Shown: positions 31,452 through 61,140 of the stretch, piece by piece
Layout: each line of letters opens with the position of its first letter
Position numbering within the stretch: the stretch's first letter is position 1
Made by a program: the position numbers and the translations under genes
Notes under the pieces: generated by a model
The model's input: only the letters and a program-made list of their open reading frames with translations
What the model was told of the DNA's origin: nothing
The model's database searches: none
Source of the DNA: Marsupella aquatica
Lineage: Eukaryota; Plantae; Marchantiophyta
Reading direction: 5' to 3'
NCBI GenBank assembly: GCA_973895155.1
Contig: OZ316891.1
Location: 16,829,651-16,893,650 of the forward strand
Length of the DNA: 64,000 bases

Positions 31452-32075
31452 AGCTGAACATTGTACATGCACAGTGCACCTGATGTGGATGTACTATTTT
31501 TTGAGATTGCAGAGATTCCAATTTTGAAAAGGAGTTGGGTAGGCGAGTTTATATAGGCAACACTTATCTTGTGCTCTGGCGTCAGTGGCTGGGTACATGC
31601 CTATAAAAACTTATCCTTACAAGCCTTCTTGGAAGTATTTAGGCTGAGTGGTCATTTTTATAAATACTTTCATCATACTGCTAAATTAAAATAGGACTTC
31701 TAAGTTGTAAGCGTATAAATTATCAGGCATGCAATTAATCAAATTGCCCTATAAGTTTATCATTGAATGTATCCTCCTTTACAATAAAATATGTATGTGC
31801 CATGACAAGTTGGTTGCACTTCATTTCACCTTCGATATGGATTTTGTAGTATATATTCAAACAATGTCCTGCATCCGTGCAGGTGCCTAGTACGTATTGT
31901 TCACATATCCCTTGTACCTATCAAAACCGGACCTGAGCACCAGTGGGCCAGATCAACTCAAAAAGCAGGAATTTTGTTGTCCTTGTATTGTCAGGTGAAC
32001 CCATTCTTCAAAAATTCACTGTCATCATGTAGGGTGTGTGTACATGGAGCCTGGGAAACGTAGAAAGTGTGACCA

Positions 32076-38186: not shown

Positions 38187-38590
38187 GTACCTGAGGTCTG
38201 AGTGGCATCGAGAACAGGGTTGGTACCCATATCTCACCTGGTAATAAGGTGAGATATGTGATACCACTCTCACACCTGTGCCTGTGACTATACATGATTG
38301 GACTCTGATATGGTCATGGGTGTACATGCAGAGGCGGTACATTTGAGGACAGCAGAGGAGGTGGTGACACCCTCCAACATTTAGGAATTTTGTGTCATTC
38401 ACTTGACAATAGGTACACTACTCGCAAACCTGTTTTTTTCTTTTGGGGTGGTTTAGGGTTTGTGAGAATTTAGTACATGTTATGTTAACTCTTTTGGTAG
38501 ATACAGTCAGGGATATATGGAACACAAATACCACCATTAGGCATCCTTGTTCACTGCTGTCCATGACTGCAGAGCTCCCAGCCTGTTACA

Positions 38591-41500
38591 ATGCACCCTG
38601 GTCACCACCCTCCCCAGACCCAGCCTAGGGCACAGGCACTGCCTTTGCATCATCCCACAAGGATATCACGCCATGATAATAAGCTTTGGCAACGTGAAAG
38701 GTTACGAACCAGACTTTCAGGAGCCAGTAGGATGAGATGTCCTTGTGCAATCTGCCAAGGATCCCGTACCAGGGGTCTGAATGAGGTTTGGCGGCATATC
38801 GCGGTTCATGGAAGAGATCCACAACATCGAGTTTGGAATGATTCTGCAGAGGAAGATTCTTCCGACGAGGAGTGGAGGTTAGAATTTGATGCTGCCAATG
38901 CTGCAAGACGGGCAAGTGAGGTTCTACCTGGTGCATTTGAAAATGTTGTAGCTGGTCTCTGTGGGTTGTCAGCTCTCCAACGGGATGGTGCTCAGGCAGC
39001 ACCACGTGACGAAGGAATTCATGTGGAAGAGATGGTGAGAGACATCTTCCAAGACTTGGATGCATTTCACGATGGGCTGGACAACGAAGAGGATACGGCT
39101 GCAGATGCAAGTGTGTCCCCTGTCAAAGAGCCTCTTGATGAGTTTGAGATAGGGCAGGAAACCCCTGGGCATGATGGGATGTTTGGCTCTCCCCTGCAAA
39201 TACAGGAAGGCAGGAAGTCTTTGTACCCCGATAGCAAATGTTCTAAACTGGGATTTGTCATCATGTTCCTGAACATTTGCGGCAACCACAATGTCCCCAA
39301 CGTTTTGGTTTCTGAGTTGTTGGCATTCTTGCGAACAACTGTGCTACCATCTGGTAATATTTTGCCCAAGAACATGTACGAGGCAAAAAGATGCATATCT
39401 AATCTTGGATTGAACTATGATTCCATCCATGCCTGTCCTGATGGGCATGTTTTTTTCAGAAAGGAGTATAAAGAATCGTTGACATGCCCTAAGTGTGGGA
39501 AGCACAGGTATCGGAACTCAGGAAAGTCTATGGTTCCCGCCAAGGTACTTCGTCATTTTCCACTCATTCCCAGACTTCAGCGGATGTTCAAAAGCCGTGC
39601 CATCTCGGAGATGATGACTTGGGCAACTGACAAGAAAAGTGATGATGGGCTACAACGACATGCTGCAGATTCAAGGCAATGGAAACTCATAGATGAGATG
39701 TATCCCGAATTTGCTGCTGAGCCGAGGAATGTCAGACTTGGGCTGTCATTGGATGGGGTAAACCCATTTGGAGACAAGAACAACAAATTTTCATGCTGGC
39801 CTGTAACTATTTTGAATTATAACCTTCCTCCTTGGATGACTACAAAGCGATTTTTTGTTCTAATGGTCCTACTGATACCAGGGCCAGACAGTGTTGTATC
39901 TACCAACATAGATGTGTTTCTGGCTCCCCTAGTGGAGGAATTGAGAAAGCTTTGGGAGGAAGGAGTCCTCACATATGATGTCCCACAGAGGCTTGGGAGG
40001 TTAAACCCATTCATCCTTAGAGCCATCGTCATTCTGACTATAGCTGACTACCCAGCCCATGGGATGATATCAGGCCAAACAACAAAAGGATATTGTGCTT
40101 GTACTATCTGTGGGCGCAAAGTCACGAGTGAGTACTCCAGAGCCCTGCAGAAAGTGATATACATGGGCCATCGTCATTTTTTGAAGGCAGATCACCCTTA
40201 CAGAGAAAGACAGGCACTGATTGCACACTTTGGCAATGAGATTGAGCAACATGGACCCCCGGCACGAGTGACAGTGAGATTAGGCAGTGGGGAGCACTGA
40301 GGGATGACTATATCAAACGAGGGGGCAGGGAAGATGGAGTGAGTGATCCAATAAAGCGATATGGTGTAAAAAGACTGAGCATATTGGACTTGGAGCTCAA
40401 GTATTGGAGGGTAAGCCTCTTGGAGTTGATGCTAATTGGGATACATGTTTTGGTTCAGAGCATGTGCATTCATTTCGAAGAGAGAGACTAAACTTGAGGC
40501 ATTTGTTAACGCTTTTGCATTGCAACGGTGCAGGAGTTTGAGCCAAGCAAACATAACATTGATGTTATGCACATTGAGAAGAATATTTGTGAGAGTCTAC
40601 TCAGATTCTTGTGTGGAGAGAAAGACACTGGTTCAGTGAGATTGGATCTTGAACAGAGGGGAATGAAACCCCATCTTTGGTTGAGGCCACATGCCCATAG
40701 AGCTGATGTGCTCTTGAAGTACCAAGCGCCCTATGTTCTGACAGACACAGAGTGGCAACTATTTGTGCAGAGGTTGAGTTCTTTGAAGGTTCCTTCAAAC
40801 TATGGCAGTGCTTTCAAGAAGCATATCATGACTAGAAAGCTTGGTAGTATGAAAATCCATGACTACCATATGTTGATGCAATAGGTGTTGCCTTTATGTC
40901 TGAGGGGCCTGTTGCAGAAGCCTGTTTGTAATGTGATCATGCGACTCAGTGATGTGTTTTGTCGTATTTGTGTGAAGGTTTGGGATGAAACACACTTCCC
41001 ACAACTGACAGAAGATGTCGCTCAGGTGCTGTGTGACCTGGAGATTTATTTTCCTCCCGCATTTTTTGATGTCATGACCCACCTACTTGTCCATGTTGTG
41101 GAAGAGCTACACCAATTTGGGCCTGTGAGTGCTCGTTGGTTGTACCCTTTGGAACGGTACATGAAGCTACTCAAAGGTCACGTGAGAACATATTACAAAC
41201 CTGAAGCAAGCATGGCTAAAGGTTACATCAAGGATGAGACTTTGGGATTTCTGACCGAATACATAGCACAATATGAGCATGTGAAGACCAGGGTGTGGAA
41301 TTCTGATGAGGAGGAAGGGGTGATAGGTGAAGTACTGGAAGGGGCTGCAACCACAAAGAACCTGACCACATCTATGAGAGACTTGGCACATGACTTTGTA
41401 TTGCACAACACTGTGGTGATGGAACCCTGGATACAGTGAGTGCATACATGTGCTATAATCCAGTTCATGAGCTTAAATGTTGTGTGCGTGTGATTTTCTC

Positions 41501-41772
41501 CTTCAGCCTGTTCATATTTACCCAAGCTAATGCTGTGTGGTTGTTTGTTCAGGAAGTATGAGTCATTGAAGGCGGCCCATCCCACTGCAGGAACAACTTT
41601 TCCAGGTTTCATGGAGTGGATTAGAGTGGCAATTAGAGAGCATCACAAGACCTACCCAGACATGGATGCAGACATTTACCTATTGTCTAATGCCCCTAGC
41701 CTGAAAGTGAAGACTTACAAACGGATGAGAGCATATGGGAATCACTTTTGAGTGAAGGATGGTGACAGTGTT
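38591..41772 (+). pseudogene. CACTA TnpD/TNP2 transposase, copy 1, disrupted
   Basis: Near-identical to 52702-55885, with a frameshift at ~40270, stops at ~40882 and ~41749, and interruption by B2 at 41773. Confidence 0.92.
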
Positions 41773-44700
41773 TGTGATGCCTAGACAGGAATCACTCGGC
41801 AGGTTAAGTGGGTAAAGCAGGAAGGCACCCTAGGAACACCTTAGTATAGTGACAAAACAAGGAAAATATAAACAATTAGGGGCAACCATGGAACCCGGGC
41901 AGAGGCCGGAGGTAAGGCTGAGGGTGAAAACCCGATTAGGGTTAGGGCGCGTTAAGCGTCGGCGGCTAGGAAGGATCAACGGGAAGAAGGACCGGCAGAG
42001 GAGAGGGGTAAGGAGCGCTTGCAGGAGATGGTGGCTCATTTGCGAGCACGAACTAGGTAGACGACTACGGGAGGCCAACTACTGTCAGCTGCTTAGGCAA
42101 GCACTCGGGGAGAGAGTAGATACCGACGATCAACCTAAGGAGGGTATGAGCAACGTCAATCAAGCGGCACATTTCTGGGGATGCCTGTTCGAACGGGCAA
42201 CTGAGTACATCAAGACTTACGAGGACGAGGAGTCAGAAAGGGCAGCTCGAGAACGGTAGGAGCTCGCTCGATTGTGGGAGCTGCAGAACACGGCTTTCTT
42301 AGGAGGAGAACTCATCAAGGACGAGTTCCTGTGGACGCCTACTTCCAATCAACTCGACGATCTTCTGTTTTGCAAAGACAGCGTCGTCGGCATCCGAGAG
42401 GCCATCAAGAACTGCAACGACATACACTGGGAATTAAAGGGTAGCACGGAAAGGTGGACCCAGGCAACGGTGCTAGGAGAAACCTCCACGGCAGCAGAGA
42501 TGAAGAGGAAGGGAGCCGTCAACGATGAAGCCACCCCGGCAAAAAGAACGAGGTCGGCGGCACCAAAGAAGCCAGCCGAGCAGCAGAGCAGGAGGCAGGG
42601 AGAAGCCGAAGAGGAGGAGGTCAATCCCATCAAGGCCATTCCAACCAGGGATGACACCTGGAAGGGCTGGGCGGCAACCCTACCGGTGGAGGTGCAACTA
42701 CATTTTGCACGGGAGGAGGATGCATGCTTTACGGCCATGCAGACCAAGAAGTACCAAGGCTTCATGGCCGGATCCGGCTTGGAGGCCTTTGTAAGATTAC
42801 CATGGCTGAAGCCGGAGGTACCGGAGTCAGACCTATTAGAATTCGTGGGGTCATGGGAACCCGAGACCAATTGCACGAGGATATATGGGAAGGATTTCTA
42901 TCTTACTCCACTAGAAGAAAACCACCCATTCTGAGACCCTCCCCTATGTGACTTGTGCGAGACCTTCATAAATATGCGACTCCAAGTTTGTGGGTGTCAT
43001 GTTAGTTACATCATACCAACTAAGTTTTGGTGAGGTTGTGGGAAGTCATGCTTACAACTTTATCCAATGTCGCTATTGTAACACTAGTAAGTAAGAAATA
43101 GGTAAGTTATGTTAGTTACTCCACAATAGTGCAATATGAATTGGACATCATTTTTTAAAATTCCGTCAGCATGCATACCCCATTAGCCAATTTCGGATGC
43201 CAATCCCTAATATGCAACTCCCGGTGCAACTACATATTGCACACTCATGGTTCAATAAGTCCAAATATAATGGGTATAAATATGGGGGTTTTCATCAGAA
43301 TGGTGGGTACTTTCACTTATAATGTGGATTCATACCTGACTATATTTGGCCTTGTTCTTGACCAAAGTGCACTCTCCCCACATTGAACTTTTTGCTAAGT
43401 CATTTGCATTGGTTCTTTTATGTCCAAACCAACCTGTTTGCTAAGTCACTCGATGGCTGCCCACATGTGAGGGGTACTACTTTCCCTCAGGGTCAGTGTA
43501 CCTTGGAGGTTGGTTTTGCGAGAGATTTTGGGGGTACTACTTGCCCTAAGTGTTCAGGGTCAGTGTGCCGCAGAGGTTGGTTTTGCGAGGGAAATTGGGA
43601 GTCGACGACCTTCATTCCAGCTGCACTCTTCGCGAACTTCCTGCAGGGTCGTTTGAAAGTGTTTGAGCGCGACTGGACTTTAGGGTGCAAATGTGTTTAG
43701 GATTGGGCCTGCTACGAGCGTCAGTGTGGAGGTCTGCCAATCAGTTTTGAGGGGAGTCCATTGTCGCTTTTCAACCTGCTGGTGAGCTAAGCTGCTATTG
43801 AGTTTCAAGTGAGAGCTGCCGACTTGGAGTTGAGCTCTACGAGGTGGTGCCTGAGTGTACATCTGCTCGACATACTTTTGGGAGCTCGTAGTTGGTAGGA
43901 GGGCCAAGTCATTGCACAAAAAGTTGCAGCCGTGACAGTGCAAACTAGCTAGGCGGAGGCTGGTTACTGCAAGCAAGGCGGAGGATCACTGCGAGCTAGG
44001 TGGAGGAATGCTGCGCTGCTTCACATTGTGAAGAGACATGCTGCATCGGCCCAAGTAAGGTTGCATTGACCTATCTATCTCTATGTCTATAAGGTCCTAA
44101 CCGATAGTCTGCTTAGTGAGGTCCTGCTTTAAGCTACATTTGTGCGATTGATTGTGTCCTCAGAAGCTTAACCATCACATGGGGGAACGGTAGCGAGAAA
44201 GGAGGGGTGGAGCCTGATGGTCGCCAAATATTCAAACAGGGTCGCCTTGCTCGATATTGGTCTCATTGTTTTTTGCTACGGTGTGAAGGCGGCGGAGCTT
44301 CTAGTCTGACCTTTGAGTGACTTGCGGTGAGCTTCTAGTGTGGCTATTGAGGTCGACTGACCTGCATTGACCGAGCTGATCAACCTACTGAGCTGCCATT
44401 GGGAGTTGGAGGTTGTGTTGCGTTCAATTTTGGAGTCGGGAGGCTAAATGCGATAGCTCTGTTCCGGGCTCTGTTTAGCTAATGCAGACGTTTCTGCTCA
44501 GGAGACGAGGTAAAATCTATCGACCTTCAAGCTGTTGTGAGGTTCATTGAAGAGGGAGGTTGAATGCCTAGCGCTATGAGGTGAGGAAAGAGAGTATGGC
44601 CAAGCTGCATCTTTAGGGGTTTTGCTTCAGCTTTGACCATCTTTCATCGTCGTAATCGCTGCTCTCGCCTATCGCTACATGGCGGATTGCTGCTCTGCCC

Positions 44701-47566
44701 TTTTGGCATGGGTCGCCGGCCTGCTGGATGCTATCTCCAGTTTAAAAACAAGTCATATCCTAAGTCCCGGTGTTGCAGTAGTGTCCCCGACTCTAAGATG
44801 GAACAGAGTATCATCTTTCTTGTTTCCTGCTGCTGCTGATGTATGTCTATTCTCCCCTATTTTTGCTTACTGATTGGTCTCTCCACGCTTCTTGCTTGAC
44901 TTGCTGCTTCCTTCAATCCCCTATCGCGGACTCACCTCGTGGCTGCAAGTATAGTTGTCTAGGTGATGTATGCATTGCGTGTTTAGGGTCTAGGTGACAT
45001 CGCTGCTGAGCAAAATTCGCGAGCTGCCTAGGTCCATTGCCGAATGCTGCTTCCTTCAATCGCCAGGTGCCTGCTGTTACAATTGCCTACTCAATCATGC
45101 ACCCAATCTCCTGGAGCTCATTCGCCTAGAGCTTCATCCGTCAGATTCAAACTATTATTGGACCTCCCTGTTGCCCGAAGTGTATACACTCCTAGCATTG
45201 TCGTCCCAAACTGCAAAACGCTTCTCCCTGTTCTGTCCTCGTGCTTCACTATTTGTATTCAGGTGTTTTTATCAGTTTCAGAGGGGAGGTCATTGTTTCT
45301 GCAAGTTGTTGGTGAGCTAAGCTTCCGCTGTGTGTAGGTTTAGGGAGTTGCGCGTGCGAGCTAACGACTTGGACCTGAGGCCACAATCTTTTAGGGAGCT
45401 TGGAGTGGAAGCCGACAACTTGGAGCGGGACTTCAACTTGCTATTACTAGCTACCTTGGACAAAGGTGACAGTCAGTAGCGCAAAGGTGAGACTCGGTAG
45501 TTTTAGCGGATTGTTGCTCTGCCCTTTTGCCATGGGTCGCCGGCCTGCCGGATGCTACTAGCAGATTAAGAACAACTCATATCCTAAGTCCCGGTGTTGC
45601 AGTGGTGTCCCCGACCCTAAGATGCCACCCAAAATCATCTTTCTTGTTTCCTGCTGCTGCTGATCATGTATGTATGTTCTCCCCTATTTTTGCTTACTGA
45701 TTGGTCTCTCCACATTTCTTGCTTGACATGACTGTTTTGCTCCTCCCTGTATCAGAACATGCCTTGTGCCCCGTGCTCTGGCAATGGGGTGGGGGGCTGA
45801 ACAGACGGCCTTAAGGTCCACTAAATTTATAGGAACCGTGCAATCGTTCAGCTGATTTTAGCAGCAAGTTCCCTTGCTTTCCCCTATTTTTGCTAAGATC
45901 CCTCCCCACTAATCACATGCATCCTTTACTTTTCTCGGTGGCCCGTGCACCTGCCTTCCTACTTTCGTTCTTATGGACTTTCCTTAGGTTTTCTTTCACC
46001 TGATTTTGGACTTTTTGCTCCGGTGGAATCTGTCTTGACAACTTGTGTTTGTTCTAATTGTTAATATCTCAAGAGGGTCGTCAACTAAGCTCACAGGAGT
46101 CAAAGCTAACTACAAGCTAGCAAATAGGGAGAATGCTCCCAAGTCGAGTCAGGAGGAAGTTACTAAAACTAGACCTTCAGAACTCTCGAAACTGGAAAGT
46201 GAAATTCAGCCTGAGACACGCAGCTGAAGGCCACAAGGATAACTATATGGCCACGCTGTCCCTCATTCAAGTCCAAAGTCCTCTTCAGATTGTCTGAACT
46301 CCTATCTGAACTCCTGAACTGGATGAAGTCCTGTCTGAATGTGAAGTTCAGATTGGCAATCTCAAATGGCAAGTTCTGAACTCTTGTCTGAACTTCATCC
46401 ACCCTTCTAAACTGGGATTTGTGCTACGTGTATAGACTCCACATTGTTGCTTCTCCCTTTCGGGCCAGCCCTCCTTGTGAAACGTAGGAGCACGATCATG
46501 GCACTTACACATAGTCTGACATTCAAAAAATGTTACTTCTCAGCAGCATGTTTCGAGTAGTTTGCCTGTGTGTTGAGCCCGGGGTTGAGCCTAATTATTT
46601 GTTTATTGCTTTAGTAACATGCATGGCCAATTGGTTTCTCTTCATGTAAAGGCAAGTTTTTGAAACTTACTACTTGAATTGGTGGTTTGAATTTAGTTAA
46701 GTGTTGAGAAATTAGCATTCACACTAACTATTTTTCTTTTGTGATTGAGTTCTCTTTGCTATTGAATGTATTGAATAATTATTTCATCACAGAAATTTTC
46801 AGAACAAACACGGAAGCACCAGGGGGCTGAGGATTGGATATTGAGGCTGAAGACATTGAGGTAATAAACTGGGTGTGGTTCGGGTGACAATGTTAGCAAC
46901 TGGTGCTTCTTCAGGGGAACTTCCCATGTGCAAAATATCCACACATGATTGACTTTGGTTCTTGCTGTTTTTCTTTTGGTGTACTCTTCAGTTTGGTGTC
47001 ACTCTATCCTTTCTTGTAGCCTCGAAATAGGAACACACCTGCTTAGTGGTCCCCAATTGCCCAATGATTTATAATGACTGTGTCTAGGCGATGTATGCAT
47101 TGCGTGTTCATTCCAGAAGAATGAATATGTACACTTTGCACAAACCTGGACAGATTTTGAATGTTATTTATCTGAGTTTCTGTTTGTGAGCTCTGACTTG
47201 GAGCCTTAACATTTGTGTTTTTGTGGGGCTGAGCAGAGTTTGTTCCGTCCAGAAGCTGCTGTACTGAAGTGATCGGCCTCCGGCTTGGAGGTGAATCTTC
47301 AATTTTTTGTGGATCCGAGTGACTTCTGTCCAGCTGAGTTTTGCTTTGTCGGGACGATTGTGTTTGGCTAAGATGCTAGATTGTGGCTTGTCTTCTTGCT
47401 TCCAGCTTGTGTATATTCAATTAATAGAAGTTGGGAACGAGGTGATAATTGAATTTCCTTATATTAAGCATCTTGACCTAGAAACTCAATACATAAACTC
47501 CTGGAGTCCCTCGGGACATAAAATGAGCCAAATTGTTTCAAAATTGGGAACCTACACCCGCACTAC

Positions 47567-47906
47567 TCAAACAAATGTGTTGGGCTTGGTGGCCTTGTAA
47601 GTCGTCTTTAGCTTTCGCGATGGAGGTTGAATCTTGCGGTACGTCAAGGGGAACTTGATCTTTGAATCATGGAACTGCTTGGTACTTTCTCGCTTGCACA
47701 GAGAGACAGGGACTGTCGTAGTCTTGATGATCTGGATGCAAGGGAACCGAACTCTATGACAAGAAGCCATCTCATCATACATCTGCTGTGTGGTTGTTTA
47801 ATGTGGTATCACAATATTTCTTGTACATGTTGGGATAACCTGTACAACTCTGATACCTCACCCAGATACCAAAGTTCTTAATTGTGGTGGGCTTCTTTTC
47901 GAAGAT
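47567..47906 (-). pseudogene. RPL18A: Captured RPL18a last exon, copy 2 (frameshifted near 47790)
   Basis: Homologous to 28108-28449, with a small indel in the LNGAVEQ region. Confidence 0.88.
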
Positions 47907-48901
47907 CTGGTAGACACATTATTCAGCATTTGCTAACTTCGAAACTAGAAGGGTAACACATTAAACAACAGAGAAACTCACAACATCCTCCTTTGGTCCT
48001 TCAGAGTCTGTACTTTGATTATGAAGTTTGATTGAGTTTCTGTTTACTGAAAGAATGTGACTGTGTAAGAGTTCCGTTTGGCAGTGGATTGGTTGAAGCA
48101 CTTCATGCTAGTGTGTTGTCCACAGCTCTTCAACCAGCTTTCGTCTTCCTTGTCTTTCACCACTTACGATGACATCAATTCAGCTAAGACCATAGAAGGT
48201 TCCAAAGCATCTAACTTGTAAAATCGCATTCTGTTACATCAAGGACTAAGGTGTTGGGTGCCAAAGGAGACAGCACAACAAACACGCTGAAAAGACTTCA
48301 GGACTGGGTTCAACAAGGTAGTGAAGGTGCTTAGAGCCATAGTAAGTATGCATTCTGTATTTTTCTCTGTTGATGTGAGCTTGTGCATAATGGGAGTTGT
48401 AGTTGGCAAGAGTTCCAAATATGAATAGATCCAGAAGTATGTGATCATGTACTTGCTCTATAAAGTTCTGAAGATATAAGCATTTTCTGTTAGACCAGGC
48501 AACTTGGGAGTTGGTAAGTGTCACCTGCATCTGAGGGGCTACACCGGGGGCATCAGTGGAGGTTCACTTGCACAACACGACAACCAGTGAATTTTCTCTC
48601 TGCTGCAACCTGCAAGGTGAGACTTTCGGTCTTTCTGGATGAAAAAACAGGATTTTAATACGATTGATATACATGTCCATCGAGAATATGGGTTTATCAC
48701 CAAGCTCTTTGTCTTAGGAAACTCATAAACTCAGAATCAAATATGTACTATGCACGTTTCATGCTATGTGTATACTATGACCTGTAGTTGAGTGGGAACT
48801 GATTAGTTTAGGTGGTTGCTGTTGGCGAGGCAAGTCGACCTCCTGCTCACCTTGCTCATCAAAGGACGTGAACAGAGGACATCACAACAAAAGCAACACT
48901 T

Positions 48902-49351
48902 ATGGTGAGGACCCGCAACGCTGAACATGTGCGACTTGCACGCAAGGCAGAGATGTTGCGCCTTGAGTATGTCAGACTTGGGATCCTTCCAGCCCAGTCT
49001 GCATGGTACTTTGAGTACCCTGTTGTTTCCAGGAACAACTACAGCCGGCCTCTACTTGCTTCAGTACCCTTCCCGACATCCTTGGTATTTGTGTCTCTTG
49101 TACATGACCCGCCACAAATTAGGTGCCAAGGGTGTGTACACAGTTGCCAATATGACTGTCCTGCCTGTAGGGCTTCTGGCCCAGAATTGGATGACCGTTC
49201 TCTTGGATGCCGATTTTTGCATAGAGCATAATGTATCATTTGGAACCACTCGCCATCCTGCAGTGTGCCTGGTGATGTCACTTGTCCTGCCCTCCCAGAC
49301 CCCACCACCGGTGACTTTGGTGTCTACACATGTTTGGATCACATGCTCTAG
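48902..49351 (+). pseudogene. Cys/His-rich ORF, copy 2 (CAA>TAA at ~49229)
   Basis: Colinear with 29551-30000. Confidence 0.4.
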
Positions 49352-50121
49352 AGGACCACTTGTCACACCGCATGCACAGACCAGATACCATTGACCTATA
49401 GCTTAACACTCTGACTTCAACACAGAGGATATTTACTTAAAATTTTGATGTATGAGCAATTTTGGGTCCAGGGTTTAGGGTCAACAGTATATAACTTATA
49501 TCCTATTATGCCTGCACTAAGCAAAATATCCTAATTTAAGAGGCTAGCAAACTCGCATAAAAGTCTCTATTGAAAGACTGCTTTCATGACTGCTTTAACC
49601 TGGTGAACATTGCAACGTTGAATGAATTAATGGGCCATGTGATAATATGCAAAATGATTTATGCCTCACTTATTTGTCTCAGCCACTATCATAACCTATT
49701 TAGGATGTATAAATTTCAACCCTTATGACACTGCTTCATACCAATCCTCTTCGAAGAATGCCTGTTTTACATGTCACGACTATTGTATGTGATTCAAATG
49801 CATGAAATGTTGTTGCAGATCTCCTTTGGTGAATCATAGCCACAATTAAAATTGAGGTGTTGGTGGAGAAATTGTATTAGGGGATCAGTTTTGTGTGTGG
49901 GCTCAACATACCAAAAGTATGTGTGCTCTGCATCCTTGTGTGGCCATTCCAATTCATTGCAGTAGCAAATGCCTTTGTACCTTAAATGCTAAATATATTT
50001 TACTTTCTGTGCAGTCTGCTAAATTGTAGAGTCTATCTAAATGCCTTTGTACCTTAAATGCTAAATATATATTACTTTCTGTGCAGTCTGCTAAATTGTA
50101 GAGTCTATCTCATGCGCAGGC

Positions 50122-50802
50122 ATGGCACGGCCTAAAATTCAAGCCAAAAAGCGTGTGACAGAGGTGAGAAACACAGGTGTACTTGGGGCAGATGCTACTA
50201 ACTTCTCTCCAAGTCAGATTTTCCAGAAGGCAGCTCATTGTTGTGCCATTTGTGACGATGGTGGGGGCCTGGTCATTTGTGAGGGCCCTTGCATGAGGCA
50301 TTTCCACCTCAACCCGGAGTCTGACCTTGCTGCAGAAAACAACTGTCCAGGGGTGGGCCTCCCGTCAACACACCAGGGAGACTGGATGTGCACTGATTGT
50401 TTGGAGAAGCAGGCTAAGTGTGCACAGTGTGGGAAGTTGGGGTCCTATGAGGGCTCTGTTGATGCTGCAGCAAATGTTAGGAAATGTCCAGACCGTTTTT
50501 GTGTGAGATTTTTCTGTTTTGAGTGTTTGCCTGCTCATGCCACAGCTTGCCCACTTCATAGGTGCAAGGCATGTGGTGAGCATGATGATGACTACTGGAC
50601 TGACATAGTCCACTGTGCTAGGTGTCCCACTATGTGGCACTATCATTGCCTGAAAGATCATCAAGCAGAGGGTTATGCTTGTGACAGAGAAATCTATGAT
50701 CACTCTGCACATGGTGTTGATCGATGGATATTTTATTGTCATCGCCATGCCATTGATCCTACCTCGCGCACTCCTGTGAGAGATCACATATCTTGGCTGT
50801 GA
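50122..50802 (+). CDS. Stand-alone EDM2-like composite PHD-finger module (NSD-type PHD array), intact 226 aa
   Basis: CAICDDGG..CEGPCMRHFH / C..C..LGS / CPLHRCKAC / CARCP..WHYHCL / IFYC..H.ID...TPVRDH follows the EDM2 PHD region in order (recalled from memory). Preceded by a GCAG acceptor-like site. Confidence 0.85.
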   Translation: MARPKIQAKKRVTEVRNTGVLGADATNFSPSQIFQKAAHCCAICDDGGGLVICEGPCMRHFHLNPESDLAAENNCPGVGLPSTHQGDWMCTDCLEKQAKCAQCGKLGSYEGSVDAAANVRKCPDRFCVRFFCFECLPAHATACPLHRCKACGEHDDDYWTDIVHCARCPTMWHYHCLKDHQAEGYACDREIYDHSAHGVDRWIFYCHRHAIDPTSRTPVRDHISWL

Positions 50803-51395
50803 AGCTGAACATTGTACATGCACAGTGCACCTGATGTGGATGTACTATTTTTTGAGATTGCAGAGATTCCAATTTTGAAAAGGAGTTGGGTAGGCGAGTT
50901 TATATAGGCAGCACTTATCTTGTGCTCTGGCGTCAGTGGCTGGGTACATGCCTATACAAACTTATCCTTACAAGCCTTCTTGGAAGTATTTAGGCTGAGT
51001 GGTCATTTTCATAAACACTTTCATCACACTGCTAAATTAAAACAGGACTTCTAAGTTGTAAGCGTATAAATTATCAGGCATGCAATTAATCAAATTGCCC
51101 TATAAGTTTGTCATTGAATGTATCCTCCTTTACAACAAAATATGTATGTGCCATGACAAGTTGGTTGCACTTCATTTCACCACGGATATGGATTTTGTAG
51201 TATATATTCAAACAATGTCCTGCATCCGTGCAGGTGCCTAGTACGTATTGTGTGACATATCCCTTGTACCTATCAAAATCGGACCTGAGCACCAGTGGGC
51301 CAGATCAACTCAAAAAGCAGGAATTTTGTTGTCCTTGTATTGTCAGGTGAACCCATTCTTCCAAAATTCACTGTCATCACGTAGGGTGTGTGTAC

Positions 51396-52268
51396 ATGGA
51401 GCCTGGTAAACGTAGAAAGTGTGACCACCCAGCAGTGTTTACAGGGGTCAGAGCGATTTTGGTCCATGGCCAGCATGGGTTGACCAAAGTGCATTGGCCA
51501 ACTGTACAGAAACGATTCTCTGAGCTCCATGGCACTGTAGTTCAGGACATCACTCCAGAGACTACACATGTTGTTGCAGGGACATGGCTATCAGTGATAA
51601 AGAAGTGGTCATGGTCCTACATGAATTCTGCAATTACTAAGCAAGGCCTAAAAGTAGTTGAGGCCTCTTGGATCACAGATTCCATAGCACATAAGATTGT
51701 ACAGGATACTGAGCAATATGAGTTGTGGGAGGATGAAGAAGCTACTGCATCAGCTTGGGCTGAACAAGAAGTCTGGGAAGCAAAGGCACGGCTTGCTGAT
51801 CTCCAATATGGACCTGTACTCAACAAAGGACAGAGCTCTACAAGGCTGAAGAGTATGTTGGCTGAGGAGACGAAGCAACCAACCCCCATTCTGAAAGGGC
51901 TGAGCATGGTATTTGTGGAGGCGGGAATTGGAGAGGTTAAGTGCAAAGTGTACAAGTCCACAGTGCTTGACCTAGGTGGGACAGTGGAGGAGAATATAAC
52001 AGAGGACACCACTCATGTCATTACTAAGTCATATCCCAAAGCCTGCCGCAAGTTTGGGAAGGGAGACATTCGCTTTTATGTCATGTCCCATAATGTGTTT
52101 GTGGTTTCATATGCTTGGCTTGTGGAATCAGTAGCAGCTGGGAAGCGTCAAAACCCAATGGACTATGATCTTTTTGAGGCCTGGCCACGGAAGGGTCAGG
52201 ATCCTTACAGAGAGGACTATGAGACAACAAGTGAGGAATGGGTCATTAGCGATTCTGAATCAGAGTGA
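51396..52268 (+). CDS. Tandem BRCT-domain protein (DNA polymerase lambda-like BRCT), intact ~290 aa
   Basis: Two repeats: FTG..HGTVVQDITPETTHVV..VVEASWITDS..YEL and LKG..LGGTVEENITEDTTHVI..VVSYAWLVES..YDL. Acidic tail. Confidence 0.8.
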   Translation: MEPGKRRKCDHPAVFTGVRAILVHGQHGLTKVHWPTVQKRFSELHGTVVQDITPETTHVVAGTWLSVIKKWSWSYMNSAITKQGLKVVEASWITDSIAHKIVQDTEQYELWEDEEATASAWAEQEVWEAKARLADLQYGPVLNKGQSSTRLKSMLAEETKQPTPILKGLSMVFVEAGIGEVKCKVYKSTVLDLGGTVEENITEDTTHVITKSYPKACRKFGKGDIRFYVMSHNVFVVSYAWLVESVAAGKRQNPMDYDLFEAWPRKGQDPYREDYETTSEEWVISDSESE

Positions 52269-52701
52269 GGAGTAGTAGCATCAGTTTGGACACAAGTTTT
52301 TTTGTATAAATCAGATCATTGAAATAAATGTGATCTTTGAACTAATGTACCTTGTTATGGTTGGTGGCAGTTGGGCTTATTTTACTGTTGGCGGATTGTT
52401 GTTTCCTGCTGCCTGGGGGTGTCACTGTAAACGTACATGCAGAGGCGGTACATTTGAGGACAGCGGAGGAGGTGGTGACACCCTCCAACATTTAGAAATT
52501 TTGTGTCATTCACTTGACAATAGGTACACTACTTGCGAACCTGTTTTTTTCTTTTGGGGTGGTTTAGGGTTTGTGAGAATTTAGTACACGTTATGTTAAC
52601 TCTTTTGGCAGATACAGTCAGGGATATATGGAACACAAATACCACCATTAGGCATCCTTGTTCACTGCTGTCCATGACTGCAGAGCTCCCAGCCTGTTAC
52701 A

Positions 52702-55700
52702 ATGCACCCTGGTCACCACCCTCCCCAGACCCAGCCCAGGGCACAGGCACTGCCTTTGCATCATCCCACAAGGATATCACGCCATGATAATAAGCTTTGG
52801 CAGCGTGAAAGGTTACGAACCAGACTTTCAGGAGCCAGTAGGATGAGATGTCCTTGTGCAATCTGCCAAGGATCCCGTACCAGGGGTCTGAATGAGGTTT
52901 GGCGGCATATCGCGGTTCATGGAAGAGATCCACGACATCGAGTTTGGAATGATCCTGCAGAGGAAGATTCTTCCGACGAGGAGTGGAGGTTAGAATTTGA
53001 TGCTGCCAATGCTGCAAGACGGGCAAGTGAGGTTCTGCCTGGTGCATTTGAAAATGTTGTAGCTGGTCTCTGTGGGTTGTCAGCTCTCCAACGGGATGGT
53101 GCTCAGGCAGCACCACGTGACGAAGGAATTCATGTGGAAGAGATGGTGAGAGACATCTTCCAAGACTTGGATGCATTTCATGATGGGCTGGACAATGAAG
53201 AGGATACGGCTGCAGATGCAAGTGTGCCCCCTGTCGAAGAGCCTCTTGATGAGTTTGAGATAGGGCAGGAAACCCCTGGGCATGATGGGATGTTTGGCTC
53301 TCCCCTGCAAATACAGGAAGGCAGGAAGTCTTTGTACCCCGGTAGCAAATGTTCTAAACTGGGATTTGTCATCATGTTCCTGAACATTTGCGGCAACCAC
53401 AATGTCCCCAACGTTTTGGTTTCTGAGTTGTTGGCATTCTTGCGAACAACTGTGCTACCAGATGGTAATATTTTGCCCAAGAACATGTACGAGGCAAAAA
53501 GATGCATATCTAATCTTGGATTGAACTATGATTCGATCCATGCCTGTCCTGATGGGCATGTTCTTTTCAGAAAGGAGTATAAAGAATCGTTGACATGCCC
53601 TAAGTGTGGGAAGCACAGGTATCGGAACTCAGGAAAGTCTATGGTTCCCGCCAAGGTACTTCGTCATTTTCCACTCATTCCCAGACTTCAGCGGATGTTC
53701 AGAAGCCGTGCCATCTCGGAGATGATGACTTGGGCAACTGACAAGAAAAGTGATGATGGGCTACAACGACATGCTGCAGATTCAAGGCAATGGAAACTCA
53801 TAGATGAGATGTATCCCGAATTTGCTGCTGAGCCGAGGAATGTCAGACTTGGGCTGTCATTGGATGGGGTAAACCCATTTGGAGACAAGAACAACAAATT
53901 TTCATGCTGGCCTGTAACTATTTTGAATTATAACCTTCCTCCTTGGATGACTACAAAGCGATTTTTTGTTCTGATGGTCCTACTGATACCAGGGCCAGAC
54001 AGTGCTGTATCTGCCAACATAGATGTGTTTCTGGCTCCCCTAGTGGAGGAATTGAGAAAGCTTTGGGAGGAAGGAGTTCTCACATATGATGTCCTACAGA
54101 GGCTTGGGAGGTTAAACCCATTCATCCTTAGAGCCATTGTCATTCTGACTATAGCTGACTACCCAGCCCATGGGATGATATCAGGCCAAACAACAAAAGG
54201 ATATTGTGCTTGTACTATCTGTGGGCGCAATGTCACCAGTGAGTACTCCAGAGCCCTGCAGAAAGTGATATACATGGGCCATCGTCGTTTTCTGAAGACA
54301 GATCACCCTTACAGAGAAAGACAGGCACTGATTGCACACTTTGGCAATGAGATTGAGCAACGTGGACCCCCGGCACGAGTGACCAAAGAGGAGATCAGGC
54401 AGTGGGGAGCACTGAGGGATGACTATATCAAACGAGGGGGCAGGGAAGATGGAGTGAGTGATCCAATAAAGCGATATGGTGTAAAAAGACTGAGCATATT
54501 GGACTTGGAGCTCAAGTACTGGAGGGTAAGCCTCTTGGAGTTGATGCTAATTGGGATACATGTTTTGGTTCAGAGCATGTGCATTCATTTCGAAGAGAGA
54601 GACTAAACTTGAGGCATTTCCTGACGCTTTTGCATTGCAACGATGCAGGAGTTTGAGCCAAGCAAACATAACATTGATGTTATGCACATTGAAAAGAATA
54701 TTTGTGAGAGTCTACTCAGATTCTTGTGTGGAGAGAAAGACACTGGTTCAGTGAGATTGGATCTTGAACAGAGGGGAATGAAACCCCATCTTTGGTTGAG
54801 GCCACATGCCCACAGAGCTGATGTGCTCTTGAAGTACCAAGCGCCCTATGTTCTGACAGACACAGAGTGGGAACTATTTGTGCAGAGGTTGAGTTCTTTG
54901 AAGGTTCCTTCAAACTATGGCAGTGCTTTCAAGAAGCATATCATGACTAGAAAGCTTGGTAGTATGAAAAGCCATGACTACCATATGTTGATGCAACAGG
55001 TGTTGCCTTTATGCCTGAGGGGCCTGTTGCAGAAGCCTGTTCGTACTGTGATCATGCGACTCAGTGATGTGTTTCGTCGTATTTGTGTGAAGGTTTGGGA
55101 TGAAACACACTTCCCACAACTGACAGAAGATGTCGCTCAGGTGCTGTGTGACCTGGAGATTTATTTTCCTCCCGCATTTTTTGATGTCATGACCCACCTA
55201 CTTGTCCATGTTGTGGAAGAGCTACACCAATTTGGGCCTGTGAGTGCTCGTTGGTTGTACCCTTTGGAACGGTACATGAAGCTACTCAAAGGTCACGTGA
55301 GAACATATTACAAACCTGAAGCAAGCATGGCTAAAGGTTACATCAAGGATGAGACTCTGGGATTTCTGACCGAATACATAGCACAATATGAGCATGTGAA
55401 GACCAGGGTGTGGAATTCTGATGAGGAGGAAGGGGTGGTAGGTGAAGTACTGGAAGGGGCTGCAACCACAAAGAACCTGACCATATCTATGAGAGACTTG
55501 GCACATGACTTTGTATTGCACAACACTGTGGTGATGGAACCCTGGATACAGTGAGTGCATACATGTGCTATAATCCAGTTCATGAGCTTAAATGTTGTGT
55601 TCGTGTGGTTTTCTCCTTCAGCCTGTTCATGTTTACCCAAGCTAATGCTGTGTGGTTGTTCGTTCAGGGAGTATGAGTCATTGAAGGCGGCCCATCCCAC

Positions 55701-56433
55701 TGCAGGAACAACTTTTCCAGGTTTCATGGAGTGGATCAGAGTGGCAATTAGAGAGCATCACGAGACCCACCCAGACATGGATGCAGATGTTTACCTACTG
55801 TCTAATGCCCCTAGCCTGAAAGTGAAGACTTACAAACGGATGAGAGCATATGGGAATCACTTCCGAGTGAAGGATGGTGACAGTGCCTACAGGGTGACGA
55901 ATGACTGCGGGCTCATCACTGTATTTGAGCAACAGAGCCACAATCACGACAGGGCCTGGATGGAGATGGGATATGTGGGAGAATTAGTTGACATATGGGC
56001 TCTGGACTATGGGGCGGTGTCCAGTCCTGTGATTCTTATGAAAGGTTCATGGGTGCGGCAGGATTGGCTTGGTAACAGGGCTACCATGAAGAGAGACAAC
56101 GACGGTTTCTTGCTGGCCAATTTCAGAGGGAAATTGCCCGAATGGTCTGAGCCATTTGTGTTTCCTAGTCAGGTGGAGCAAGCTTTCTTCCTGGATGTGG
56201 AAGACTCCCCAGGTTGGCGTGTAGTGTGTCATAAACAGGCCAGGCAACGCCGGATGGAAGGATCAAACCTTGAGTTTCATTTACACTCTCATAGTGCCTT
56301 TGATCGTTGGCGTTCAGACCAAGTGCCTGTAGTTCATGATAGCGGGGACTTCATTCCTGTGACAAGGGTAGATGCATTTGCTGAAGGAGGCGAATTCAGA
56401 GATGCAGATGCCAACAGTGTGCCTGTGCCATGA
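52702..56433 (+). CDS. CACTA TnpD/TNP2 transposase (Transposase_21, DUF4218, DUF4216-type regions), 3 exons, apparently intact
   Basis: Exons ~52702-54525, 54649-55550 and 55668-56433 join in frame at GT-AG sites. Motifs CPCAIC, IHACPDG, RNVRLGLSLDGVNPF, DYPA, DVMHIEKN, FFDVMTHL, YPLERYM, EPFVFPSQVEQAFF. The true start is uncertain. Confidence 0.93.
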
Positions 56434-56589
56434 GTAATGTGAATTGTTTGCATAGACATTAGTGAGGGGAAGGATGTGTAATAAAGTAATTCTGAAGCAA
56501 CACAGATGTATGGATGGATGCCTGGTGATTGTGGTTGCATTGTGTTATACGGGGTGACCATAGATGACATGTTTTTGTGGTCCAGTAGG

Positions 56590-59500
56590 ATGGAACAGAG
56601 TGACACAGAGATGTGTGAGTATGAAAGGAAAGCTATGGAACAACGAGCATACGTGAAAGCCAAAATCGCAGAACTGGATCTGGAAAAGGATGTGGCTGAA
56701 TTGTAAGGGAACGATTCTCAACTACACCCCTCCGCTGAGTTTGTGTGACATGAATAGTTCAATGTGGCACTGAAATTGTGACTGTATTCTCATATTGGAA
56801 TGTCGCAGAGCCACAGCATTTTCAAAGAAACAAAAGGAGTACGCAAGAAGGGTGACCAGCACTATCTCTGGGCCTGTGCGTCGGAGTGACAGGTTGAGCA
56901 AGAAGGTCGTACCTACAATGGCAGAATGTGGAGATGACATTGATGCTGCACAGGTGGGTGCAGACACTAGACAAGAAGATGCAGATGATGAGTATTTTCC
57001 AGAGGAAATGGATGAGGATGGGGGTTATGAAGATGAATACATTGCAGAGCAGCCCCAAAAGAAACATGTAAGTAGTTTTCCCAACAAGGTTTTGAGTTAA
57101 AAACTCTTGTTTAGAGGTTTCATATGTTCAGTACTACACATATGTACCTTGCTTAGTTCCTGACATTGTAGTTGGTGATGTGATGCAGCGTCCTGCCAGT
57201 TCTGTTTTGCCTTCGAAGCCTGTGCATGCACCATACCAGCAGGGGGGGCTGACCTCTGATCAAGGTTGGCGAGGTGGTAGTAGTGGTAGATCCCAGGCTG
57301 GTGCCCAATACTATGGCAGGGGGCAAGCTCTAGGTTATGCCCGTGGTAGAGGCAGAGCAGGTCCAAACCCACAATCTCGTGGGTATGGACGTCCACCTCA
57401 ACCGTGGGGATGTGAGTATATATCTATATGCCAGTTCTTTGTGAAGGCATGGCACTCCTGAATTTCAGACTGCATATCAATTTTTGACATTGTTTGGGAT
57501 GTATTGGATTCAGACAACATGAAATTCTGTCCACCTGCCATTGCATGCAGATTCTGCCCAACCTGATTGGGCAAATGCTAGTAATGATCAGTTCCAATGT
57601 CCACAAGGACAGACATGGGTTGAACCAGGTTGGGAGGATGGTGGTGGGTCGTGGAATGAACAAGGTTGGGAAGGTGGTGAAGGTAATTGGCAGGGATATC
57701 AAAATTCAGTACCTACAAACGCTGGAAGAGGAGCAGGTAATGTCTGATCTTGTCAGCAATGGAAGAACTCATTATATGTGGAGTCCATTCACGTGGGGGG
57801 GACTCTGCACATGTATAATGATAGAAAATGTATGTGTGCAGGTTGGACAGTCGAACCATCGACTCAAGTATTCACTAATGCCCCTATGCAGATGCAGCAC
57901 GGAAGGGGGACAGGTATGTCGGTGAATGTTCAGTTGTTTTCCTACAGTTTGTACTTAGTTTTCAGTACATATGTTTGCACACACATACCTAGAAAGTGAC
58001 ATCATCCGGCCCCTGTACTAGGCTGGACAGGTGGTCCAGGGTCGCAACAATTTCAGAGTGCAGTCCCTGCACAGGCATCTACAGGCAGAGCTACAGGTAT
58101 GTATGTTTGAAGAATTTTTCTTGAAGTGAAGCATTGAATGTTGCCGTCATCCATTCTGCTATATGTAGTTCTCAAGCATGAATGGCATTGTATTTTCCCA
58201 GGTGGCTTCAGAACCCCAGGTAGGGTGAATGAAGGGGTGGCCAATACAACGCCCAGTACTACCGAGAGCAGTGCACGAGGGGAGGTGACAAAGAAAGGGA
58301 ACGTAAAGTTGAATGAGAGACAATGGGTGGATGCTGAGTGTCCTCGCAAGAACCGATGGCATGCTGATTTGAAAGCTGAAGTATTGCGTTGGTTAGATGT
58401 GAGTGTTATTAATTTTAAAAAACAGCATCCAAAAGATTGGAAGACTGTATGTGAAAATGTTGCTGCCAAATGGAATTATGTGGGCAGTGATGATGGCGTG
58501 GACATAGGTTGCCTAGAGAGTACAGCAGGTAAAATTATCAAGCAAGAGAGGTGGAGAATGCATAAGGCTTGGAAGGAAGGTGGGGAGAAGCCAGATATGC
58601 CTCCACCAGCCAGTTGTGATGATAAAGTGTGGGCAAGGTTAGTAGCTTATTTTGTAACAGATGCTTCAAAAAAGAAGAGTTCACAGATGACCGAGGCCAG
58701 GTTGAGTGTTCAGAACCCTAATCTGACAGGAAGGACCGGCACTGCACCGACAGCTAAACGTTTGGTAAGAATGAATGGCCTAGCTATGTAATTTATGCTA
58801 CACTATGTACTATTTTTTAGTGTACTGTCCCTACATGTAAACTTTGTTTTTTAGTGTACGTTCCCTGAATATTGATCGATAACTTGTGTTTGCCATGCAT
58901 GTGCAGAAAGCCCAATTGGGGCAAAGCCCTTCAAAAGAAGAGTTGAGGGCTGAAATTGTGAACACCCGGGCTCAAGAGGGTGCATCTGAATCCTCCAAGC
59001 ATGTAAGTTATATGAGTTCTGATTGGTAATTGAATGACCTGCGTTGAATTTCAGGTGTACACTGTATATAACATTGATTGTGCATATATTGCCCAACATT
59101 TCATATGGAGTGATTGAACCTATACCCCTGTGTCATGTAGGGAGGTGGATCTTCACTTACAGAGATAAGTGGTCGTTTGAAGGCTGTCGAAACATGTCTT
59201 CCAGAGATCAATGAACGTTTGAATTCATTGACTGACTTGTTCCATGTGAACTTCAAGACATTAATGGAAGCTGTTGTGTCGGTGAGAGATAAAATTGATT
59301 CCAATTCTGCAGGAGTTCCACCATCACCACTTGAGGTGGCAAAGTCGATGCACTCTTCTGGCATGCCAACGACATGTAGGCTTGAAGGTAAGGCCTTTAC
59401 AACTGTGTGGGATATGATTATTAAATGTATAGTTTGAATTGACATTGTTTGTTGAATGTGTTATTTTCAGTAACATATATTGTGGTTGTTGTGTCCATAG

Positions 59501-60297
59501 AGAATAAGACAGGTGCTACAGAGAAGAAGTATGAGAACCTGGCAAATACTCGCTGTAATTTAGAGGCAACAAAGTTGCAGTCTGTACAAGCAACTTGTTT
59601 GACAGAGGGCAGTCAACCATGTTTGGATGAGGATGACATTGGCAAGGGAGTGGATGATATCAATGTTGGGGCAAATGAGGATATCAGCAAGCATGACAAT
59701 GATACCATTGAGCCAGATTCATGCTATGTAGATCTTGACTCCATTGCAGAGATAAATGATTTGCAGAATGTATCATTCTCAATGACAGGTGTGCCTCTTG
59801 TTGAGATAAATCCAACCAAAGAGTTAGTTGGTATGACACTCCCAGGTGATGAACCTGCTACTGTGACAGTCCTAACAGAGGAACCTACTGAGCCTAGCTT
59901 CACTACTGTGAAGAGAGGAAGCATGCGCACACGAAGCAAGTCTGCTGGTGGGAGCAGAGCCACGTCAAAGGTTTCATACAAACCTCCAAGAACAGTGCTG
60001 GCAGAAAGATCTAAGGTGGAAGTGGGGAAAGCACCTAATGCTGAGGGACAAAGTGGCTTGTTAGCTGTTGATGAGAGTGGAACACGAGTAGGATTTGCCA
60101 GAGTGCAGGTTGGTTCCACAACGTTCCATGGCAAGAGGATTCCCCCAGGTTATTCAGTAGTGTTAGTCACATTACTAGTGAAACCTAAAGCTGTCCTTCC
60201 CATTCCAAACACAAATGATGATCCTCCTCAAAAGACACTTGGAGATGCTGCAGGTTCTTTGGTATTATGGCCAAGCAAGTTCATAGAGGATCCATAA
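56590..60297 (+). CDS. CACTA TnpA/TNP1-like second gene, multi-exon
   Basis: Short GT-AG exons from 56590. 58202-58765 has a Ptta/En/Spm-like W..LV.YF..SSQMTEAR..TGRTG region. The last exon ends FHGKRIPPGY..V..LPIP..TLGDAAGSLVLWP. Exact exon structure is not resolved. Confidence 0.75.
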
Positions 60298-60814
60298 CAA
60301 TGTCATGCCATTATTTGTTTGTAGTGTGAGTCATGTTATGTAGATTTTAGATGTCAAGAAACAGTACAAGAATCATGTCCTCTTGGAGATTCATAGTATC
60401 ATGCATGTGCTTTCAGTTATCTCATCCTACAGTCATCAATTATGAGTTCCTGTTTTGTCTAAATTACATTGATCACATTGTAAACTATTCCATTGGAATT
60501 CAAATGATCTTCATTTTTTAGCAAGATTGTGATTGTGTTTAATTCTTATGAATGTTTTATGTAGGATCTGCTTATATGATGCTTTGTTTCATGTGGATGT
60601 CATTCATGCTATGTTCATTTCTTGTATTCAATGTGTTATATTTCTAAAGTTAGAACATCAGGTTTCTATGTATTGTAATGTCGAGTGCTCTCTCTTCTTA
60701 TGAACTGTCCCTCTGTGTTCATTAGTCATGGTTATAACTTGCATGTGATCCTTATTAGTTATAAACATGAGTATATAGAGTCCCAAATGGTTCTGTTGTG
60801 TGACGCGGGCCAGG

Positions 60815-61140
60815 GTCTCCATTGGTCTCTCCTGTGACACTAAATAGTCACACGCTAGTCGTTGTTGAATGCGGGTAAGTCATGTATGTGATTTACGATG
60901 TGACTCGCTGAAGTCATATTGCAGTCACGTCGAAACAAGGCTAGACTCCACAATAAAGTCACAGATCAGTCACAAATGGGTATCAAGCAAGTTGCAAAGC
61001 CCAGTATCAATAGTGACTTCCATTTTTTGGTCTCAACTTTTGCAACTCCAAGGGTCACAGCGTGGGTCAAGTCACGTTGAGTCACAATGAAGTCACATGA
61101 GCCAAAATGAGTCATATATTGCGGTCTCAGTTCACCTCGG
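60815..61140. repeat. CACTA subterminal repeats (GTCAC/GTGAC core, both orientations)
   Basis: Dense TGTGAC, AGTCACA, GTGACT and GAGTCAC motifs beside the right TIR. Similar motifs lie near both left ends. Confidence 0.7.

Follow-up and report, generated by a model that had tools for sequence, protein, structure and literature searches.

What would a transposon gain from carrying a chromatin reader of its own? In the window analysed here, a 64,000-nucleotide stretch of the Marsupella aquatica genome, a short ORF that encodes a triple-PHD module of the EDM2 type (hereafter the PHD ORF) lies within a CACTA/EnSpm element. Judged from its sequence, this ORF is real, conserved, transposon-borne and more specialised than the first-pass annotation had read it to be; its function we infer. 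Our preferred reading, to which we assign a probability of roughly 0.4, is that the product would serve the element as a chromatin adaptor or decoy that reads nucleosomes, presents a mimic of histone H3, and blunts silencing.

An in-frame stop (50092-50094) lies upstream of the PHD ORF, and all 24 zinc ligands of the EDM2/NSD triple-PHD module are kept in it. The Cys/His array, C41-H209, accounts for 75% of the protein, which had been described as consisting almost entirely of this array; the C-terminal end quoted at that time stopped four residues short of the actual ...TPVRDHISWL*. Pfam recognises three NSD-type PHD models in order (E 4.6e-5, 3.9e-3 and 7e-5, each below the curated cut-off), and the scan returned PHD models only, with no evident DNA-binding domain. 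AlphaFold2, supplied with a 96-row alignment in place of a 6-row one whose fold was unusable (pLDDT 49), predicts a confident structure (mean pLDDT 89, pTM 0.83), with values below 50 in residues 14-24 only. Structure searches retrieved PHD cassettes only, headed by the NSD2 tandem PHD (Z 5.1, rmsd 2.6, 75 aligned), and our PDB searches returned no solved structure of the EDM2 PHD module. BLASTP against Arabidopsis EDM2 (EDM2_ARATH, P0172, which we take to be At5g55390) aligned EDM2 residues 225-432 with 64 of 211 positions identical (30%; E 2e-27), the two proteins sharing a triple atypical PHD module, all ligand positions and the YC..H..TP.RDH motif.

Table 1. Features of the two CACTA copies and of the PHD ORF, in coordinates of the window.
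Feature	Position	Strand	Remarks
CACTA copy 1, decayed, with nested insertions	16305..41772	+	3' part past window end
Copy 1 PHD ORF	30771..31451	+	98% identical; premature stop at codon 35
Twin-BRCT ORF, copy 1 counterpart	about 32040-32075 and 36795-37640		
TG..CA element, left part	41773..42908	+	split by copy 2; right part 61153-64000 and beyond
CACTA/EnSpm element copy 2, 18,244 bp	42909..61152	+	apparently intact; TIRs, TSD, empty site
Small Cys-rich ORF, 109 aa	48902..49231	+	no Pfam match; possible further cargo gene
Stand-alone EDM2-type triple-PHD ORF	50122..50802	+	226 aa, intron-free, one terminal stop
Histone-H3-like tail, residues 2-10, A-R-x-K-x-x-A-K-K	50125..50151	+	fits iM-Z-R-X-K
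Family-specific leader F/W-S/T-x-x-E-x-x-Q-x-x-x-H, residues 28-40	50203..50241	+	in place of the EDM2 acidic stretch
Three zinc fingers (C41-C93, C100-H146, C148-H209)	50242..50748	+	24 Cys/His ligands
EDM2-type C-terminal motif YC..H.I....TP.RDH..W	50734..50799	+	followed by conserved stop
Twin-BRCT ORF, 290 aa	51396..52268	+	second cargo gene; PF00533 E 2.6e-13; AATAAA at 52323
TnpD transposase, 1,163 aa	52702..56433	+	no internal stop; predicted exons 52702-54525, 54649-55550, 55668-56433
TnpA-like gene, multi-exon	56590..60297	+	approximate boundaries; open GT-AG-bounded stretches
Sub-terminal repeats, GTCAC/GTGAC motif	60800..61096	.	12 sites near 3' end

The transposon-borne location proposed at the outset is borne out by the element itself. 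Copy 2 carries a perfect 11-bp TIR, CACTAGAAGAA, at both ends, starting CACTA (inverted-repeat termini of the form 5'-CAC(TA)...(TA)GTG-3' are the criterion for CACTA elements according to PMC12730594), and is flanked by a 3-bp TSD, CTC (42906-42908 and 61153-61155). TnpD matches Transpos_assoc, Transposase_21 (E 2.2e-70), DUF4218 and DUF4216 in Pfam, so that termini, TSD and transposase all have the form expected of CACTA/EnSpm; by its looks, the element is autonomous. Contigs join 42905 to 61153, the empty site, in four of four runs (three organisms from three studies, one possibly being the window's own source), and in the same four runs contigs span all 30 bins of the element. The GTCAC repeats are clear at the 3' end and sparse at the 5' end. 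Along the element, the order of genes is Cys-rich ORF, PHD ORF, twin-BRCT ORF, TnpD and TnpA-like gene. A weak Transposase_24 match within the last of these (58138-58791, +; E 1.5e-4) is below cut-off; TnpA-like proteins occur only in flowering plants among the references of a preprint (10.64898/2026.08.24.746577), a range that this weak TnpA-type match may widen. The ratio of observed to expected CpG is 0.25 in the PHD ORF as compared to 0.63 in the host-gene region, and such depletion is consistent with methylation pressure on the element.

Two further ORFs travel with the PHD ORF. The Cys-rich ORF, which differs between the window copies by 5 nonsynonymous and 6 synonymous changes, is open over its length in both, copy 1 lacking a stop at the same place in an ungapped comparison. 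The twin-BRCT ORF, whose nearest Atlas clusters score below 0.9, shows 3 nonsynonymous versus 8 synonymous changes and is a conserved second cargo gene, possibly with a role in break repair. As a separate observation, contig depth over the 48.8-51.0 kb block, which includes the PHD gene, exceeds that over the rest of the element in several runs; this PHD-containing cassette may be shared with other element families. A 512-bp segment between the BRCT and TnpD genes (37810-38321) is shared by copy 1 and further copies represented in the runs, where it is seen as loose contig ends at 52433, and is absent from copy 2.

Self-comparison of the window reveals a long unit that is present twice, the copies being 92-99% identical; copy 1 carries stops in both the PHD ORF and TnpD. 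Copy 2 had been placed in a nest of transposable elements, and it does sit in one: it splits a TG..CA element that itself lies within the last TnpD exon of copy 1. Elements of this TG..CA kind, 4-4.7 kb in length (32076-36794, 23774-27786, 41773-42908 plus 61153-64000, and one from about 13809), are bounded by 5-bp duplications (GACCA for 32076-36794) and hold long ORFs with coiled-coil ends that gave no RT or integrase match; they are giant solo-LTR-like units with a coding region of their own. Copy 1 also contains a small LTR-type element (16833-20200) with identical 143-bp repeats and an AAAAC duplication, which carries an ABC-transporter fragment on the minus strand (17487-18092; PF00005, E 2.9e-14) and is a recent insertion with a captured host piece. 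Adjoining the nest are exons of a host gene for a SKI2/MTR4-like RNA helicase (5920-10181, minus strand; DEAD and MTR4 beta-barrel matches).

Is the PHD module made as a protein in its own right? The stand-alone form suggested by the first-pass annotation holds up: the ORF is intron-free, and the stop follows directly on the C-terminal motif in 11 of the 16 relatives that have the motif. Among the best 150 of 564 all-length matches there is no long or fused protein belonging to the clade of short relatives, complete family members scoring 206-333 bits and long proteins at most 125 per stretch. The idea that the module is spliced to the transposase and guides it is disfavoured, given the conserved stop position and the poor donor site: as a hidden splice donor, the stop codon scores 0.1 on a rough matrix, as compared to 4.3 for a TnpD donor, the offset of the end varies among relatives, and in two of them the last residue is Ile. 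We likewise rejected an in-frame intron at 50164-50226, which would remove residues 15-35, since residues 28-39 are conserved as protein and L001, a relative, has CAA at the Gln codon. There is, separately, a strong donor-like site (GAG/GTGAGA) at 50164, directly after the 14-codon H3-like tail, and L001 has a donor-like site at the corresponding codon; splicing could join the tail to a gene further downstream. The relatives in the databases have probably been predicted as ORFs on contigs, which leaves room for spliced forms.

As a separate protein, the product might act in transposition rather than on silencing, namely as a cofactor that, with the BRCT protein and TnpA/TnpD, anchors the transpososome either in chromatin of a given state (heterochromatin, TE nests) or at the repair machinery. 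Its position upstream of TnpD and next to a twin-BRCT ORF under apparent constraint would suit such a role, as would the PHD fingers reported in transposases such as Rehavkus (PMC6446971). Both copies reside in a TE nest, but two insertions in one window are uninformative on target preference; the lack of a fused form among those best 150 matches is unhelpful to the idea, and the conserved H3-like tail is left unexplained by it. We consider this reading unlikely, yet place it ahead of the other alternatives.

Where did the module come from? Searches for relatives yielded 5 among 124 candidates, 16 among 1,416, and 564 among 1.84 billion representatives. Within the best 150 of these 564, the closest are short ORFs of about 213-245 aa (37-82% identity), followed by full-length plant proteins; the ten long matches that were looked up are all land-plant PHD proteins, and two clusters are named EDM2. 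The short proteins form one clade in each of two trees, comprising 12 of 12 rows at 100/99 support and 17 of 17 rows at 99 SH-aLRT (built without near-duplicates, fragments, and 15 of 68 rows in the 17-row tree or more in the 12-row tree). This clade falls inside the streptophyte EDM2 group at 83/80, on a long stem of 1.61 changes per column. In the best tree its sister group, at 78/86, consists of ELP-less EDM2-like paralogues from liverworts; the AU test did not reject a position outside plant EDM2 (p 0.229) or one as sister to seed-plant EDM2 (p 0.167). Of the 18 family rows, 13 carry the EDM2-type C-terminal motif, as do 33 of the 46 EDM2-type rows and none of the 4 outgroups, a distribution that favours an EDM2 origin over other NSD-type PHDs. 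The NSD1-3 PHD1-3 cassette is covered by the same three Pfam models, but the profile match to NSD2 (E 8.7e-11) is much weaker than the EDM2 matches (E 1e-25 to 1e-37 among the best 150 of 564), the NSD cassette lacks the EDM2 C-terminal motif in the alignment, and the PHD ORF has neither SET nor PWWP. Derivation from a plant EDM2-family gene is thus likely, as the first-pass annotation had it: the best matches are of the EDM2/NSD type, and the zinc ligands are not lost in most copies.

The ELP-less liverwort paralogues (Calypogeia P0023/P0186, Riccia P0026, P0028 and P0069) resemble the PHD ORF in their low-acid leader (2-6 acidic residues in 20); the Calypogeia proteins share the FS..E pattern and P0069 has an RPK.KA.K stretch. 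In contrast to the PHD ORF, they mostly measure 690-770 aa and keep both the PHD2 His and a loop of 25-27 residues. Short EDM2 derivatives also occur in grasses (Leersia P0017; P0042, P0050 and P0068), where they form a separate clade, and a stand-alone EDM2 PHD is therefore not in itself peculiar to the present family. Three of these start M-A-R-x-K, a hint that the EDM2 PHD module was joined to an H3-like start a second time and independently. Elsewhere, a metagenome scan gave one locus from 60 pattern matches, too short to show flanks; no listed contig joins a distant relative to a transposase, L001 (1,495 bp) holding none; and viral contigs yielded relatives in 0 of 25 and transposase in 0 of 153 cases. 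A match in a prokaryote genome (L002, 1 of 17; E 2e-4, 31% over 72 residues) was treated as chance.

Despite this likely ancestry, the PHD ORF is, as we read its sequence, not simply a clipped EDM2. Its product stops after the PHD module and lacks the RFD-like N-terminal part, acidic stretch, PGR and ELP methyltransferase-like domain listed for EDM2 (PMC7529245), no ELP motifs being found in it; the H3-like tail and the location in a transposon, in turn, set it apart from EDM2. The 20 residues before PHD1 contain 1 acidic residue as compared to 11 in Arabidopsis EDM2 (means of 2.4 in the family, n=24, and 10.0, n=52). In the leader that takes their place, F/W/Y is found in all 24 members, S/T in 23, E in 19, Q in 22 and H in 22, and the model renders it partly helical. 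In PHD2, Cys replaces His in 18 of 18 family rows (residue 132 in the PHD ORF), versus His in 44 of 46 EDM2-type rows, and the loop counts 7 residues in 18 of 18, versus a median of 26.5, EDM2's PHD2 insert being absent. Peptide data on the EDM2 'composite PHD' reportedly come from Lei et al. 2014. That the surface before PHD1 matters is indicated by AIRE PHD1, in which H3 binding depends in part on the aspartate that immediately precedes the first Cys (Asp297Ala; PMC3471955); the equivalent position is His in 22 of 24 members, while two acidic positions further inside are retained, residues 45 and 54 being D/E in 18 of 18 each. EDM2 was pulled down with H3K9me1/2/3 and not with unmodified H3 peptides, as described in PMC6208443. 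With the acidic leader lost and PHD2 altered, this H3K9me preference cannot be assumed for the PHD ORF; since the surface before PHD1 is rebuilt, the histone mark that it reads probably differs from that of EDM2.

These changes bear on the proposal that the product shields H3K9me2 or competes with EDM2, of which the retained EDM2 PHD module stands, while the presumed specificity is weakened. In its fullest form, the proposal makes the protein a stand-in for EDM2, or a dominant-negative, in the ASI1-AIPP1-EDM2 complex, with H3K9me2 specificity kept and transcripts running through the heterochromatin of the element. The whole PHD module and the C-terminal motif are indeed there, and EDM2, besides its H3K9me binding, affects silencing and read-through of transposable elements (PMC3632883, PMC10241880). 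Against it speak the lost acidic leader, the substitution and short loop fixed in PHD2, and the long stem branch; moreover, the pairing with ELP-less liverwort paralogues in the best tree reaches only 78/86. We regard this as rather improbable.

A further feature that sets the family apart from EDM2 lies at its N-terminus. After removal of Met, the PHD ORF would start A-R-P-K-I-Q-A-K-K, to be compared with A1 R2 T3 K4 and A7 R8 K9 of the histone H3 tail (PMC9898751, PMC8166343). H3 N-terminal mimics have been defined by iM-Z-R-X-K, a pattern that fits 48 of about 21,000 human proteins according to PMC8166343. [AST]RxK precedes PHD1 in 20 of 24 family members (a set without one near-duplicate, three tail-less rows and two outside the clade), as compared to a mean of 1.7-1.8 and a maximum of 8 in 5000 shuffled controls; 19 of the 24 have A/S at position 7 plus K/R at 8 or 9 as well. 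Given that the rows are related, these counts speak for conservation, not for independent origins. The motif comes right after a Met in 11 of 24 members and at the called start, in the strict form M-Z-R-x-K, in 9 (P0001 and eight more; copy 1 fits with Pro at Z). At the called start, the strict form was found in none of 120 transposases and in 3 of 158 other EDM2-like proteins, all of the short grass type. Of the 20 members with the motif, 9 have it elsewhere than directly after a Met, so that the mimicry does not always extend to the free amine of H3. In the single-chain model, residues 2 and 6-7 are in a strand or bridge state (pLDDT about 55) with no partner strand visible, and complex predictions of the tail (2-31) with the module (28-226), run without alignments, scored 0.32, 0.02 and 0.01.

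We take the H3-like N-terminus to be a conserved feature, though a basic tail of this kind may simply be an NLS. The first-pass annotation had seen a basic N-terminus and a possible NLS, and had missed the likeness to H3. Could the tail be an NLS only, and the protein a generic PHD scaffold that binds proteins other than histones and assists the element by other means? Basic residues are all that an NLS requires, wherever they stand relative to the initiator Met, and the spacing of R2, K4 and the small residues at 1 and 7 is fixed far beyond composition-matched shuffles. Lys-rich positions 6, 8 and 9 and the four of 24 members without the motif would agree with such a scaffold, as would the existence of PHD fingers that do not bind H3 (PMC9640981); on the whole, we find it quite improbable.

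Is the gene maintained? Across 18 proteins, zinc-ligand positions hold Cys or His in 412 of 423 aligned cells, in agreement with the claim that these ligands are kept. Between the PHD ORF and L001, residue identity is 97 of 212, whereas 8 of 25 four-fold third positions agree, near saturation. We therefore read the short-protein clade as being under long-term purifying selection. Between the two window copies there are 10 nonsynonymous and 3 synonymous changes, a neutral-looking ratio; with P0002 as outgroup, 7 of the 10 nonsynonymous changes are assigned to the decayed copy 1. Contigs from organism D at 80% or more reach depths of 3406, 978 and 907 in the PHD-ORF bins versus 8 and 1 in neighbouring bins (depth not being copy number), and concentrate on the TnpD exons also, not on the flanks; runs X8 and X9 give good coverage of TnpD but hardly any of the PHD ORF, a coverage hole that proves nothing. 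Taken together, this is in keeping with a functional gene in an element that has multiple, decaying copies. That the ORF is a passively captured, Pack-CACTA-like gene fragment without function, or that the distant relatives are ordinary host genes, is highly improbable: copy 1 is broken and changes between copies look neutral, 12 of 28 relatives lack an intact end, and linkage to CACTA is seen for this element only, but divergence is deep with ligands, start and stop conserved, L001 is interrupted by a frameshift of the kind seen in decayed TE copies, and none of the 14 short relatives looked up is named from an annotated plant proteome.

How might an adaptor or decoy serve the element? The PHD ORF would be expressed as its own protein from Met1, and removal of this Met would expose Ala1-Arg2-x-Lys4 as in H3. 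The PHD module would bind an H3-type tail, either that of the nucleosome or its own, the latter as an on/off latch; the mimic tail could bait or block host histone readers and writers, or latch its own PHD1. The net effect would be anti-silencing, with the element staying transcribable. With no evident DNA-binding domain in the product, anti-silencing restricted to the element itself would call for a partner; TnpA could plausibly supply the sequence specificity. TnpA of Spm and VANC of VANDAL/Mutator elements provide precedents for anti-silencing (10.64898/2026.08.24.746577): they, too, are transposon-encoded accessory proteins that act on chromatin for the benefit of the element (PMC6446971, 10.64898/2026.08.24.746577), but they bind DNA motifs. 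According to the same preprint, H3K9 methylation persists on activated Arabidopsis Spm, which leaves room for a helper at the histone level. The TET/JBP genes of fungal DNA transposons, including EnSpm, are likewise separate chromatin-related cargo in complete CACTA elements (PMC12730594); they encode an enzyme that acts on DNA, whereas the PHD ORF encodes a reader-type module with a mimic tail. The iM-Z-R-X-K start is shared with the H3 N-terminal mimicry proteins described in PMC8166343, which are human host proteins, whereas the mimic of the present case is transposon-encoded and attached to a PHD module of its own. A bolder version, which we offer tentatively and hold to be unlikely, is that a widespread plant CACTA lineage has turned an EDM2-family reader module into a 'mini-nucleosome decoy', in which the H3 mimic is latched on its own triple PHD, is released or modified by host H3K4/H3K9 enzymes, diverts silencing, and works with the co-carried BRCT protein.

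Chromatin-related cargo as such is already known from transposons, as illustrated by VANC and the PHD of Rehavkus (PMC6446971) and by TET/JBP in fungal EnSpm (PMC12730594). A survey of 962 Spm-encoded structures describes various accessory proteins, the term 'PHD' being absent from its main text (10.64898/2026.08.24.746577), and in the main texts of the open-access literature we found no EDM2-type PHD or H3 mimic in a CACTA element. Being small (226 aa), confidently folding and housed in an apparently intact element, the PHD ORF is easy to test, and it represents a naturally occurring, minimal form of the EDM2 PHD module. If the conserved, probably EDM2-derived reader and its H3-like tail act as proposed, they would open a histone-level route of anti-silencing, unlike the DNA-motif route taken by VANC and TnpA. 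Should the decoy reading be true, a plant DNA transposon would be using histone mimicry, which is hitherto known mainly from viruses and host proteins.
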